Positions 12,001 to 18,000 of a stretch of DNA of 64,000 nucleotides are shown piece after piece (within the stretch, counting starts at the first letter, position 1; every line of letters begins with the position of its first letter). Source of the DNA: a plasmid; NCBI RefSeq assembly GCF_054482525.1, contig NZ_JBTHVG010000003.1; one strand, given 5' to 3'. Made by a program: the position numbers.

Positions 12001-15000
12001 GTGGGCACAATGAACCGCAATTTCATGATGGGAATGAAAGATGGCTGGTGGCCCGCTGATATGAACGCTTACCCTGCATAACGTTACTAACCACAATCTT
12101 TTCACTAAAAGAAAAAAGGGTTCCTCCGCTTTAGAGGAACCCTTTCAAAAGGTGCCGATGGCATACTAATCCACACCCTGAAAAGAGGGGGGTTGCCCCC
12201 ATAAGCGCTAACTTAAGGGTTGTGGTATTACGCCTGATATGATTTAACGTGCCGATGAATTACTCTCACGATAACTGGTCAGCAATTCTGGCCCATATTG
12301 GTAAGCCCGAAGAACTGGATACTTCGGCACGTAATGCCGGGGCTCTAACCCGCCGCCGCGAAATTCGTGATGCTGCAACTCTGCTACGTCTGGGGCTGGC
12401 TTACGGCCCCGGGGGGATGTCATTACGTGAAGTCACTGCATGGGCTCAGCTCCATGACGTTGCAACATTATCTGACGTGGCTCTCCTGAAGCGGCTGCGG
12501 AATGCCGCCGACTGGTTTGGCATACTTGCCGCACAAACACTTGCTGTACGCGCCGCAGTTACGGGTTGTACAAGCGGAAAGAGATTGCGTCTTGTCGATG
12601 GAACAGCAATCAGTGCGCCCGGGGGCGGCAGCGCTGAATGGCGACTACATATGGGATATGATCCTCATACCTGTCAGTTCACTGATTTTGAGCTAACCGA
12701 CAGCAGAGACGCTGAACGGCTGGACCGATTTGCGCAAACGGCAGACGAGATACGCATTGCTGACCGGGGATTCGGTTCGCGTCCCGAATGTATCCGCTCA
12801 CTTGCTTTTGGAGAAGCTGATTATATCGTCCGGGTTCACTGGCGAGGATTGCGCTGGTTAACTGCAGAAGGAATGCGCTTTGACATGATGGGTTTTCTGC
12901 GCGGGCTGGATTGCGGTAAGAACGGTGAAACCACTGTAATGATAGGCAATTCAGGTAATAAAAAAGCCGGAGCTCCCTTTCCGGCACGTCTCATTGCCGT
13001 ATCACTTCCTCCCGAAAAAGCATTAATCAGTAAAACCCGACTGCTCAGCGAGAATCGTCGAAAAGGACGAGTAGTTCAGGCGGAAACGCTGGAAGCAGCG
13101 GGCCATGTGCTATTGCTAACATCATTACCGGAAGATGAATATTCAGCAGAGCAAGTGGCTGATTGTTACCGTCTGCGATGGCAAATTGAACTGGCTTTTA
13201 AGCGGCTCAAAAGTTTGCTGCACCTGGATGCTTTGCGTGCAAAGGAACCTGAACTCGCGAAAGCGTGGATATTTGCTAATCTACTCGCCGCATTTTTAAT
13301 TGACGACATAATCCAGCCATCGCTGGATTTCCCCCCCAGAAGTGCCGGATCCGAAAAGAAGAACTAACTCGTTGTGGAGAATAACAAAAATGGTCATCTG
13401 GAGCTTACAGGTGGCCATTCGTGGGACAGTATCCCTGACAGCCTACAAAACGCAATTGAAGAACGCGAGGCATCGTCTTAACGAGGCACCGAGGCGTCGC
13501 ATTCTTCAGATGGTTCAACCCTTAAGTTAGCGCTTATGGGGGTTGCCCCCCTCTTTGTCAGCTACTTACCGGATTCGTAGGCCAGGATAGCAAATACCTC
13601 CCTTGTTCCGTCTTTCATCCGCAACTCGCAAAGCGAGTTTCGTGTGAGCCAGGTGAATATCAACAGCGTTAAACAAACTATTAATATGCACAAAACAATG
13701 GGTTGGTTCGGCATTTTCATGGCCTTCTTCTCCTTGCATTTAAGCAGGCAAGAGGCTACGCTGTGTGTGACTAGCATACAGGGGCCTCGGGTTGTACTGA
13801 CCCCAGAAAGTTGGACAGTTAAACACGAGGCATATAGGTCTGATTCCGATATTCAATTGGAGTCAGACCTTTTAATTTCAGGCTAATTCTTCTGCTGTTG
13901 TAGTATTCAATATATTCCGTAACAGCATCCTTCAGCTCGCTTATATTACTGAACTCATCAAGATAAAAACACTCCGACTTTAAGGTTCCAAAGAAACACT
14001 CCACCACAGCATTATCCAGACAATTGCCTTTTCTGGACATGCTTTGTTTAATACCATGTTCTTTAAGGATATTTTGATATCTTCTCATACGATACTGCCA
14101 TCCCTGGTCAGAGTGCAGAACAGGATGCTCGTGAGGATTAAGCTTTTTGAATGCCTGATCGAGCATATTCTCGACCATGTTCATCACTGGTCTTTCCGAA
14201 AGGCTGTAAGAAATAACTTCGTTGTTGAAGAGATCTATTACTGGAGACAAATACAGCTTGCGCCCATTGACTGCAAATTCAGTAACATCGGTAACCCACT
14301 TCTCGTTTGGCCGCGTAGCCTTGAAATCTCTTTGGAGAACATTGGGGGCGGTTTGCCCTACCTCTCCTCTGTAAGAGCGGTATCGCTTGACCTTAATCGC
14401 TGCCTTCAGTGAGAGGATTCCCATCAGGCGCTGAACAGCTTTATGGTTAATCTGTTTCCCTTCTCGATGAAGAGACAGCGTTACCCTACGGTATCCGTAT
14501 CGGCCTCTATTCTCATGATAAATCTCACCAATACGCTTTTTAACGTCCGCATACTTGTCAGGCTTGCTGAGAGCCTTTAGATGGTAATAAAACGTACTGC
14601 GCGGTATCTCCGCAGCCCTGAGAAGCTCATCAAGAGGATAAAACTGCCTTAGCTCGTTGAGTACTTTCACTTTTTCGTGGGATGAGCTAAGGCTTTCAGC
14701 TTTTTTAGATACACAAGCCGCGTTTCAAGAAATCGAACTTGCCTTTCAAGATCCTCAATGCGTCGGTCTTTTGACAGCTCCAATGCTGATGCCGCTTTTT
14801 CTGGATCAACTGATATTGCAATGTTTCTTTTGGTGCCAATCTTGAGCGCGCGTAAACCAGCTTCTCCGCGCTCTTCATAAACCTTCAGCCACCTGGCTAC
14901 AGAACCACTACCAGCAAGCATAAAGTGAGCAGCAGCCTGATTAAGGGACATGTGCTGCTCGATCACCGCTTTCACGACCTTAATACGCAACTCAGGATCA

Positions 15001-18000
15001 GCACTAACACCTTTAGGTTTGGGAATTAAACCTTTTTCTCCATGTTTTTCATAGAGGGCAACCCATGTCCTGACCTGGGTTCGGGGGACACCAAAACGTG
15101 CCGAGATGATCCTGTAACCATCATCAGTAGTGAAGTAGTGATTCACGACTTCAAGGCGCTTTTCAAAAGGGTATTTTGGCTTTGACATATCAGGGGCTAT
15201 TCCATTTCATCGTCCAACAAAATGGGTGCAGTACAGGTTAATTGAAAAATTACTCGGGGCTTTCTGCTTTTACCACAGTCAAACAGTGTTACCGCTGGCT
15301 GGGGCAAAAGCCTCCAGCACCAGCGTCATTATATCACTCTGCCCTGATCAGCCAAACACCCTGCCTGCATAAATCATTGATTTATAATTTATTTGACATG
15401 AGTCACTTCCGGTTGTCGGAGACAGTCTTTTTACACTAAAGAAAAGGGTAACGGGCAGCTGCTTGGTCGGAACATACAGTGCAGTTCCTGCCCGTTTAAT
15501 TTCCGGATGCAATGGTAGGATCAGGAGGCACTGGTTCCGTTGATTAGGGAAAGCTTATGTGCCTGAATACGGCTGTATTCGAGATGGGATGGAATATTAC
15601 AGATGCGCTCCAGTCGATCATGCAGCCTCGTGTAGGTCAGTCGATGAATACCGGACATTTCATCAAGTAGCCAGCGCTTGATGTAAGGGTTACAGGAAAG
15701 CCGGGCAAGATCGTCGTCATCCACTTCGTCAAAGAACCAGTACTGCTCCATCGGGACTACCTGAAATATCCACGGCCGGGGATAGTCCCCTGTGACAACC
15801 AAAAACCATGCGAGAAAGCATAGACACAGCTCAACGATCATCAGCATCGAAAATTGCGAATAACTTAGACCAGGCACATAGGGTGAACTATCCGCAACAT
15901 ACCCCCTGAACAATTCCGCCACAAGGTAGCCCAATAGCGACAAGGCCAGCATCAGGGTCAGGATTAATCCCCCATTAAACGCTACCGAAGCCTTTTGAAC
16001 CCGATCAGGTGCTGTCCGGCTGCGATAGTTGGTCACTACTCTTTCTACAAGTGCCCTTATGGCAGCCTGTTCTTTACTGACATCAGCTCCGGAAAAACCG
16101 GACGGGCTTTTATTTAATTCAGTCATACCCCACTCCTGTTATGTGCTCTACTGAACAAACACGTAGATCATACAGAGCTCACGGACGCACTCCTGCCAGA
16201 TAAAGGAGGGAATTTGGCTGTAAGACGGTTAGCCAACAGTTCAGGTTATGCGTGGGATCCGGCCAGTCAGAAAGGATTCCGTTATTAACAGGCAAGGTTA
16301 AAGGCAGATGGACGTTGAAATTGTGGATGCTAAAAGGGGTATTACTCTTTTTCCTGCATAGCGGCTTTTTCAGCCCGGGTGGCCAGGCGAGCATTTCCGA
16401 AAGGTTCACGGACAAGCAGGGGCTTCTCCTTCTTCCAGCCCCTGATAGCCGTTTCTCCAAAACGACGTGGTGCATTGCCGTTCCAGCGAGCAATCACATG
16501 ATTATCATGAATTTCTATAATGACAACGGGGTGGACAATGACCGTTGTAATGGTGGTATTTCCCATTTTGGTACGGGTTACAGACCAAACCTGCATCCCG
16601 GATTCCAGCTGGCTGATTTTCATATTATATCCTTAAGCCAACACGAACTGCGCCACAAAAATTAATGTGGCGCAATTTACCATAAACAATAAACATCAGA
16701 TACCCGTGAAGAGATTTCCCTTTATTTTAAAATTCTTCTGGAGAAAAAATGATATTTCCAGAAGAAGTCAGCGAAATTCAGAAACGGCCATCACAATGGT
16801 GCTGCGCTGACGCTGGCGTTCTGCCTTGCGCTGCCTGCGGCGATAGATCTATTTTGCGCTGACGTAAGGGCAGTCCTCACGGGTATACCAGCAGCAGCCG
16901 CAAGGTTCGGGCCGGGGTTTTCCGGCAAGTCCAAATGGTTTCATCAAGTCACCTTTTTAATATTTTTAATGGCAAGATACTTCCCTAACACATTGTTTTA
17001 TCGCATATAACGCTGTTGCATAAACAGATACAGATAACCCTCAGGAGAAAACATGCAAAGGTTATCAGTGATAACCGCATCCAGATACCGAGTGTCAGTC
17101 TGTAAACGTTTTATCACCAGAAAATGTGCTGCCGCAGCCTTAATGCCAGAACTACCGTTTACAACATTATGTATACCCGCTTCGAATAACGAACGAGCAT
17201 GAATTACCTTTTCCCGGGCCGCTTCGATCTCCGCATTAATAACGCATTGCCGCGCCTGGATGACTGCCTCTCCGGTTAAATCGCGGAAATTCATTAGAGA
17301 TGTGATCATGATTAACTCTCCAGATTATGTGGAATCATTATAACAACTGGCATCCCGCCACAAATAACCTGAGAAAAATTCTTTGAAATATTCCTATATA
17401 TAAGGAATTACAGTCGGAAAAGAAACGATGAAATAGCGCCGACCGCTTAAAATCGATAAATTAAAATGGACGGCACTGGAATGAAAAACTGAAAGTAGTA
17501 AGACCGTAATTATCCTTCACGGATGTAAGCTTTATAAGAGGAGTACTGGCAAAGCTTTGCCAAGTACTTCGGCGGTTGTGTCTACGATTTTACGGATGTC
17601 ATCGATCTGCGAAGGCTTATTCAACACCACCGTAAAAAGCTCTCCTTCGTTATCAGCCTGCTCGCAGTTTCCGTATCGGCTCCCGTCGTACAGCTGCACA
17701 ATACGTGACATAGAAGACTTTGTTTGTTTCATGGCTTTGCACCTGCTTTTAGGCAGTTTGGTTACTGGTTATCAGAAGCTGGTTTCATGCGCTTCCGGCT
17801 GGGACACGAACTGGTATTTGACGCCGCCAGGCACACCTACTGCTTCGGCAATAGAGTCGCAAAGCCGCGATAAATCATTTAGTGTCATCGGATATTCAAT
17901 ATCTACAGAATATAAAGCACCTGCATTTTCAGCATCTTCGATGTTTTTATACTGGGCACTAAATATAGCAATGGTCTGAATTTCGTGGTTATGCATGAAC

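Follow-up and report, generated by a model that had tools for sequence, protein, structure and literature searches.

The stretch analysed here (hereafter the window) comprises 64,000 nucleotides of a plasmid (RefSeq assembly GCF_054482525.1, contig NZ_JBTHVG010000003.1) with an IncHI2 backbone, 99.98% identical to pSTM6-275 across positions 1-38386. It carries a hok/sok killer locus that has been cut into three pieces by two insertion sequences (IS), IS186 and IS150, one on either side of the toxin gene (Table 1). A preliminary description, made from the sequence alone, had regarded this locus as dismantled around an intact toxin open reading frame (ORF); this structural reading is supported by our analysis, and every coordinate it gave, checked over 10500-16500, holds to the base. 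The 52-codon hok ORF is intact both by its coordinates and by its Pfam match, and the Hok/Gef toxin of about 50 amino acids (aa) that it encodes differs in one residue from the Hok of R478. It is accompanied by an intact, overlapping mok frame with its own ribosome-binding site (GAGG, 13784-13787), located 6 nt upstream of the mok ATG.

Table 1. Pieces of the interrupted hok/sok locus and the two inserted elements, in window coordinates
Feature	Position	Strand	Basis
Intrinsic terminator of hok mRNA, displaced; hairpin with 14-bp stem, then a T run	12114-12146	minus	terminator scan; terminal hairpin of rebuilt fold
Displaced 3' fold-back (fbi-like) element UCGGCACC, predicted to pair with the mRNA 5' end	12151-12158	minus	fold of rebuilt mRNA
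IS186 target duplication, left copy GGGGTTGCCCC, half of the post-hok GC hairpin	12189-12199		
IS186 (NCBI label IS421), 1339 bp, 23-bp inverted repeats	12200-13538	plus	100% identical to K-12 IS186A/IS186B
IS186 target duplication, right copy GGGGTTGCCCC	13539-13549		
hok toxin ORF, intact, 52 aa	13562-13720	minus	Pfam PF01848 HOK_GEF, E=6e-18
mok-like overlapping frame, intact, 71 aa	13562-13777	minus	homologous to annotated mokC of K-12
Putative Sok promoter TTGCAT-17-TACGCT (13734-13762) and first ~24 nt of sok (13769-13792)	13734-13792	plus	sequence reading and sokC homology
IS150 variant, 1443 bp, GGT duplication	13793-15235	minus	17 differences, 98.8% identity to K-12 copy
15-bp hairpin in IS150 right end (3' end of insB), then TTTTAATTT	13836-13870	plus	terminator scan and fold, z = -6.0
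Second GGT copy and orphaned sok 3' part (terminator stem-loop, U tail)	15236-15271	plus	aligns with sokC
Orphaned hok mRNA 5' leader, with 5' closing element GGUGCUGG at 15315-15322	15239-15322	minus	Rfam sok model positions 1 to ~85 and fold
hok promoter TTTGGC-17-TATAAT	15328-15356	minus	scan: 10/12 consensus matches, TG extension

The upstream element is an IS150 of the IS3 family, as judged by its length, TGTACTG-type imperfect ends, overlapping insA (14667-15188) and insB (13819-14670) genes with helix-turn-helix and rve domains, and a duplication within the 3-4 bp range. Both genes lie on the minus strand, co-directional with hok. The right end (IRR) of the element adjoins GGCCTCG-GGT; it lies 72, 15 and 4 nt upstream of the hok ATG, the mok ATG and the mok Shine-Dalgarno sequence, respectively, which confirms both the duplication and the distance first reported and bears out the suggestion that this junction corresponds to the mok-start and Sok-complementary region. 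The insertion cuts sok after about nt 24 and leaves mok and hok without their promoter and 5' leader, to which the 5' closing element belongs. The hok side retains hok and mok, with the translation start of mok, together with the promoter and 5' end of sok, whereas the Sok terminator stem-loop is stranded beyond IS150 along with the first 84 nt of the leader and the promoter of hok. Transcription from this hok promoter, recovered by our scan where it had been described, now crosses the 84-nt leader and enters IS150 in the same sense as insA and insB. One of the 17 substitutions that distinguish this IS150 from the K-12 copy lies in the right terminal repeat.

The downstream element shows the features of IS186 (IS4 family): about 1.34 kb, 23-bp repeats, a single DDE transposase (12249-13367, plus strand, convergent with hok), a target duplication in the 10-11-bp range (11 bp here) and a GGGG(N6/7)CCCC target. 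As had been noticed, it sits 23 nt after the hok stop codon inside a perfect hairpin, which is restored as AAAGAGGGGGG-TTG-CCCCCCTCTTT when the three pieces are joined, and it severs the 3' fold-back region and the terminator from hok.

To rebuild the ancestor, both elements and one copy of each duplication were deleted, giving 905 bp. The uninterrupted locus that the preliminary description had proposed to seek in related plasmids was found in about 70 IncHI2 plasmids: 70 PLSDB records (e.g. pAPEC-O1-R) cover at least 80% of the rebuilt sequence in one place, and all 60 of the matches listed are full-length, 100% identical and uninterrupted. The rebuilt mRNA is 414 nt long with a predicted minimum free energy of -169 kcal/mol (z = -7.8), and in the predicted fold its nucleotides 1-8, GGUGCUGG, pair with UCGGCACC just before the terminator, with a separate 11-bp hairpin GAGGGGGGCAACCCCCCUC 3' of the stop codon. 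Such a closed 5'-3' architecture of hok mRNA is known from R1. The size of the locus without its IS elements, given earlier as about 435 nt, is rather about 450 nt when taken from the -35 box to the terminator. The Rfam sok model (RF01794; gathering score 59), which spans the hok leader between +1 and the start codon of hok, scores 81.1 bits in the uninterrupted allele of pAPEC-O1-R; in the window it is found as two halves flanking IS150, 15322-15238 (46.7 bits) and 13790-13718 (34.4 bits), both below 59, and a scan of the whole 64 kb at the gathering threshold gave no match and hence no second intact sok. The 905-bp identity to uninterrupted loci, the Rfam score and the closed fold establish that the ancestor is a canonical hok/sok module and that the first reconstruction was exact. 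The window locus is a disrupted member of that family: it lacks a contiguous leader with a cis-antisense sok (promoter, target-complementary 5' end and terminator hairpin), and the elements of the long-range 5'-3' pairing, which is predicted in the rebuilt mRNA only, and the terminator are present but 1.3 and 1.4 kb apart. The intact hok ORF is uninformative about selection, since the flanks show no divergence at all from uninterrupted alleles and decay has had no time to set in.

The annotation of this region deserves a remark. On the collinear pSTM6-275, the NCBI pipeline gives Hok as 39 aa from an internal start (window 13562-13681), not as the 52-aa ORF starting MKMP, and leaves mok and sok unannotated; on some other plasmids the mok frame is labelled 'DUF5431 family protein'.

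The target of IS186 has been defined as GGGG(N6/N7)CCCC, a motif present at only 54 places in the E. coli genome and entered in either orientation (Lee et al., PMC5009759). In the window freed of IS elements (61 kb, used for all motif counts), the motif occurs once, and that occurrence is the post-hok hairpin, which the left duplication fits as GGGG-GGTTGCC-CCCC, with an N7 core. The same site is split by IS186 in about 210 of the 1016 plasmids with this hok 3' region, where the numbers for IS186-split and IS150-only alleles are estimates from coverage classes and sampled rows. Separate insertions into this hairpin have either orientation and duplications of 10 or 11 bp: IS186 is inverted in pATCC43845, p13E573-HI2 and p2017-03-3CC_1 (where it is the only element, the IS150 site being empty), it is oriented as in the window in R478, with a 10-bp duplication, and in pKOX it occupies a different hok allele with the duplication GGGTTTCCCC. 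Target preference is sufficient to explain the IS186 insertion.

The IS150 insertion also recurs. A 200-nt query spanning the hok side and the right end of the element, counted at at least 80% coverage, was found for IS150 or ISKpn8 in 1245 PLSDB records, about 1.7% of the database and to be read as records rather than independent lineages. The mirror query, with the left end at the hok side, was found in three only (NZ_CP025626.1, NZ_CP144929.1 and NZ_CP067389.1, carrying IS150 or ISKpn8), which may be insertions in the distal hairpin arm, as seen upstream of mokB in the laboratory. Ten junctions were read, including that of the window, and they comprise five hok alleles, three element variants (the window's IS150 variant, canonical IS150 and ISKpn8) and the duplications GGT, TGG, TGGG and GAA, with insA and insB co-directional with hok in all ten. 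The first IncHI2 allele carries the window's variant after GGCCTCG-GGT or, in pATCC43845, canonical IS150 (GGT); the second carries canonical IS150 in R478 and ISKpn8 in pFJMB80146_1 (both GGT). An allele common to two IncF plasmids, L007 and L019 (NZ_CP026754.1), holds canonical IS150 in the former and the window-type variant, with 2 differences, in the latter (both TGG), and a Klebsiella allele common to pKOX and pKP3-2 holds IS150 and ISKpn8, respectively (both TGGG). In pSH163_120, which encodes an R1-type Hok and from which the R1-type locus was taken in place of R1 or F reference records, IS150 lies at GCCTCG-TGG; in pF16EC0541-1 (CP088391.1), also R1-type, it lies 11 nt further into the Sok hairpin loop (GAA), a second, minor site at which the orientation is unchanged.

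It could be argued that these junctions descend from one ancient module of hok with IS150, and at times IS186, that was spread among plasmids by recombination, as F-like leading regions and IncHI2 backbones do recombine and many records have identical junctions. This is very improbable. Identical IS150 copies are bordered by hok flanks that differ by up to about 15%, the duplications differ (GGT, TGG, TGGG or GAA for IS150, 10 or 11 bp for IS186) and a single allele carries different element variants. Because uninterrupted copies exist for both IncHI2 alleles, the IS150 insertions at hok are repeated gains and not one old module.

The closest match to the window insertion comes from laboratory lines of E. 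coli B. Shewaramani et al. (PMC5289635) call the trg/mokB interval an IS150 hot spot, place ten of 50 IS150-mediated events upstream of mokB in mutation-accumulation lines, in which selection is minimal, and tabulate IS150(-) with +3 bp at 16972-16974 in two of these lines. In REL606, positions 16972-16974 are the GGT that directly follows GGCCTCG, 71 nt upstream of hokC, and since hokC is on the minus strand the inserted element runs in the same direction as hokC; the window agrees exactly with this event in site, duplication and orientation. Upstream of mokB, the same table lists IS150 (+) at 1272468-72 and (-) at 1272453-55. These coordinates were converted for a strain inversion by the mapping x -> 2,734,721 - x, derived from the mokB site and fitted independently by the chaA/ldrC entry. 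The (+) site then reads GGCCTCG-GTT, 13 nt from mokB and co-directional, and the (-) site reads as the mirror motif GGCCCCG-ACC in the opposite arm of the hairpin that holds the (+) site, where the element is reversed. As the orientation of IS150 follows the motif at both mokB arms, these events argue for oriented target recognition over a survival filter. In Table 3 of PMC5419217, trg/mokB (1,272,468) and chaA/ldrC (1,464,061) look swapped relative to REL606, which is explained by the same inversion in strain REL4536.

With both insertions recurring and both elements treating the surroundings of hok as a hot spot, we propose, with a probability of roughly 0.8, that two separate insertions, each governed by the target preference of the element itself, cut a canonical hok/sok locus into three pieces. 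The IS150 variant would have come first, landing directly after GGCCTCG with a GGT duplication and its transposase genes co-directional with hok, so as to detach the hok promoter and the 5' folding elements and to cut sok after about nt 24; IS186 would have landed later in the GGGG-N7-CCCC hairpin just 3' of hok and detached the fold-back element and the terminator. This order is the most likely one for the lineage. The window's exact IS150 junction is present in several hundred IncHI2 records (a rough extrapolation from sampled rows) and both elements in the window's arrangement in 65-68 records only; in the sole IS186-only example read on this allele, that of p2017-03-3CC_1, IS186 is inverted.

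Two causes had been offered for the double insertion, selection to neutralise the killer and a target preference for hok RNA-structure DNA. The second is strongly supported by the single IS186 motif in the window, the match of IS150 to mutation-accumulation lines and its presence in 1245 plasmids; the first is not needed, because target preference explains both insertions. Under selection, insertions would persist and spread mainly as silencing of the killer lowers the cost of the plasmid or frees the host, and this, in place of target choice, would account for the repeated interruption of hok loci. The IS150-bearing allele is dominant in IncHI2 plasmids, and mokB mutations were fixed in 50% of the populations in a parallelism table of the long-term evolution experiment. 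Moreover, in both E. coli and K. pneumoniae, homologs of hok/sok were found close to hot spots of insertion, and their disruption was suggested to be an adaptive strategy (Durrant et al., bioRxiv 10.1101/527788); IS150 insertions at hok loci of evolving populations are recorded by Finn et al. (PMC5419217) under loss of redundant functions. However, the same site, duplication and orientation appeared in mutation-accumulation lines under minimal selection, and the IS186 site is the only match to its motif in 61 kb. Selection would not demand nucleotide-exact, oriented insertions and would also yield insertions inside the ORF. We therefore consider an adaptive origin unlikely.

Post-segregational killing by R1 hok/sok needs a stable, closed hok mRNA that outlasts the unstable Sok RNA. 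Since in the window neither the promoter and 5' closing element nor the fold-back element and terminator are still joined to hok, the locus is very probably dead as a killer, a judgement drawn from its anatomy. Several points weigh against this account of the locus and its origin. In the sense direction, IS150 is followed immediately by unbroken mok, with its ribosome-binding site, and hok, and a terminator scan of the minus strand found no terminator-like site between insB and mok; hok may therefore still be transcribed, whether from a promoter in IS150 or by read-through of the element from the hok promoter. A functional antisense RNA may also come from the surviving Sok promoter and 24-nt Sok 5' end. 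Differences between element variants at one site could in some cases reflect gene conversion between IS copies instead of new insertions, the PLSDB counts are of records, and a fitness benefit could also underlie the very high frequency of the IS150 allele in IncHI2.

The possible antisense RNA merits attention. The Sok start was placed near 13769 by homology to annotated K-12 sokC, and its promoter is only putative because a simple promoter scan did not list TTGCAT-17-TACGCT. Transcription from this promoter would now enter the right end of IS150, where the 13836-13870 hairpin could block transcription entering the element from outside and is possibly the terminator of a chimeric Sok-IS150 antisense RNA. 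In the predicted chimera, about 15 nt of the Sok 5' tail remain single-stranded, and the 15-bp IS150 hairpin followed by UUUUAAUUU forms the 3' end (z = -6.0). ISKpn8, 94.5% identical overall, retains the hairpin with one U.G to G-C change and two wobble changes. On these grounds the locus might have been rewired, with the chimeric RNA restraining hok transcripts that leave IS150 and the hok promoter feeding the transposase genes. The U-rich tail of the predicted RNA, the conservation of the hairpin in ISKpn8, the near-invariant orientation (1245 against 3) and the terminator-free passage from insB to mok are all consistent with such an arrangement, but the U tail is interrupted and IS186 removes the elements that make hok mRNA long-lived. 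The orientation bias requires no functional explanation, since it is already present in mutation-accumulation lines. Rewiring is possible but doubtful. A broader version, which we hold just as tentatively, is that the IS150 family (IS150 and ISKpn8) uses the Sok terminator stem, with GGCCTCG and its AT-rich loop, as a dedicated oriented landing site on enterobacterial plasmids and that the product is a working hybrid in which hok is silenced by the chimeric RNA; if true, an insertion sequence and a toxin-antitoxin (TA) locus would here be specific partners.

Returning to target preference, what IS150 recognises seems to exceed the heptamer. GGCCTCG, complementary to the mok ribosome-binding site and part of the lower stem of the Sok terminator hairpin, occurs four times on the two strands of the IS-free window. 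GGCCTCG alone was rejected as a sufficient target, as three of these copies are unoccupied; because only the hok copy is occupied, the hairpin or the AT-rich context probably matters. IS911 is reported to target sequences that resemble its own terminal repeats, and a comparable rule was considered for IS150 but dropped, as the nearby TGTATGC is not conserved in other hok alleles. Around the junction, GCCTCG (13784-13789) is matched in inverted orientation over 6 bp by CGAGGC (13826-13831, 34-39 nt inside the right end of IS150), and the two pair in the predicted chimeric RNA. This match is probably a coincidence, since the hexamer lies outside the part common to both terminal repeats.

Elsewhere in the window, a RelE/ParE-family toxin gene is annotated at 34021-34317, in the backbone collinear with pSTM6-275; if this toxin belongs to a working module, further maintenance systems may exist on the plasmid alongside the broken hok/sok. 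A hypothetical protein of 93 aa (16342-16623) receives from PLSDB's resistance predictor the label 'Brucella suis mprF, defensin resistance' at 100% identity, and this label is almost certainly wrong. Collinearity with pSTM6-275 ends after 38386, and the remaining part (38387-64000) contains an IS91-family transposase (44678-45877), an IS2 TnpB (52859-53764) and two ParB-like genes (58095-59258 and 62469-63524).

The arrangement described here is neither rare nor new: it is the plasmid case of the phenomenon known from K-12 hokA, hokC and hokE and from the IS150 hot spots of E. coli B. What is added is a definition of the target of IS150, the rule that governs orientation there and the extent of such insertions on plasmids (1245 records), none of which is stated in the papers found by our literature search. 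Papers on IncHI2 and hok found by that search offer PCR typing tables only, with IS insertions unmentioned, and a recent preprint on Hok diversity discusses neither IS150 nor IS186. PMC5289635, PMC5419217 and PMC4301190 name a hot spot or TA inactivation but, in the text covered, leave the motif undefined and do not mention plasmids. The loose notion of a hot spot near hok becomes a defined, testable target, GGCCTCG with a 3-4-nt duplication in one orientation for IS150 and ISKpn8, with the GGGG(N6/7)CCCC hairpin as the counterpart for IS186. Mutational bias alone can mimic repeated selection against a killer gene. Caution is also warranted with annotation, as 'Hok family toxin' or 'hok-sok present', whether called by software or by PCR typing, may count non-stabilising modules on IncHI2 and many IncF or Klebsiella plasmids.

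Comparison with named systems places the window among hok loci disrupted by IS elements, with both elements near but not inside an intact ORF, in DNA for regulatory RNA structure. The rebuilt locus resembles R1 hok/sok (parB) in its gene layout and in its predicted 5'-3' closed mRNA. In pSH163_120, whose Hok we take to be that of R1, IS150 occupies the same GCCTCG site; the Hok of the window is clearly different from this R1-type Hok, roughly two-thirds identical by eye. To our knowledge, the post-hok hairpin of R1 is without a GGGG..CCCC motif and would offer no target to IS186. The E. coli B hot spots at hokC, mokB and other hok loci (PMC5289635, PMC5419217 and PMC4301190) share with the window the heptamer GGCCTCG with GGT, the distances (71-72 nt to the hok ATG and 13-15 nt to the mok ATG) and the orientation, but they are laboratory events at chromosomal loci. 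R478 (NC_005211.1, the IncHI2 reference), pATCC43845 and pKOX have the same three-piece layout of IS186, hok and IS150. However, R478 carries canonical IS150, its IS186 duplication is 10 bp long and its 254-bp hok segment has 5 differences, IS186 is inverted in pATCC43845, and the hok allele of pKOX is only about 85-89% identical; their insertions are events separate from those of the window.

The parallel with K-12, drawn from general knowledge in the preliminary description, is borne out in MG1655. There, IS186A and IS186B lie a few nt after the stop codons of hokC and hokE, in a homologous GC hairpin (GGGG-ATCACT-CCCC and GGGG-AGTAAT-CCCC, respectively) and with the ORF untouched. Unlike the window, where the core is N7 and the carrier a conjugative plasmid, these loci are chromosomal, have an N6 core and keep their leader and sok uninterrupted. 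In hokA, IS150 (3720633-3722075) also splits the mok/sok overlap upstream of an intact hok ORF, leaving mokA and sokA as pseudogenes, but this canonical copy has the opposite orientation and lies 32 rather than 72 nt from the ATG. It is without a target duplication (flanks AGTA and AAC), and this, together with the short distance to the ATG, suggests that a deletion adjoining the element followed its insertion in hokA.

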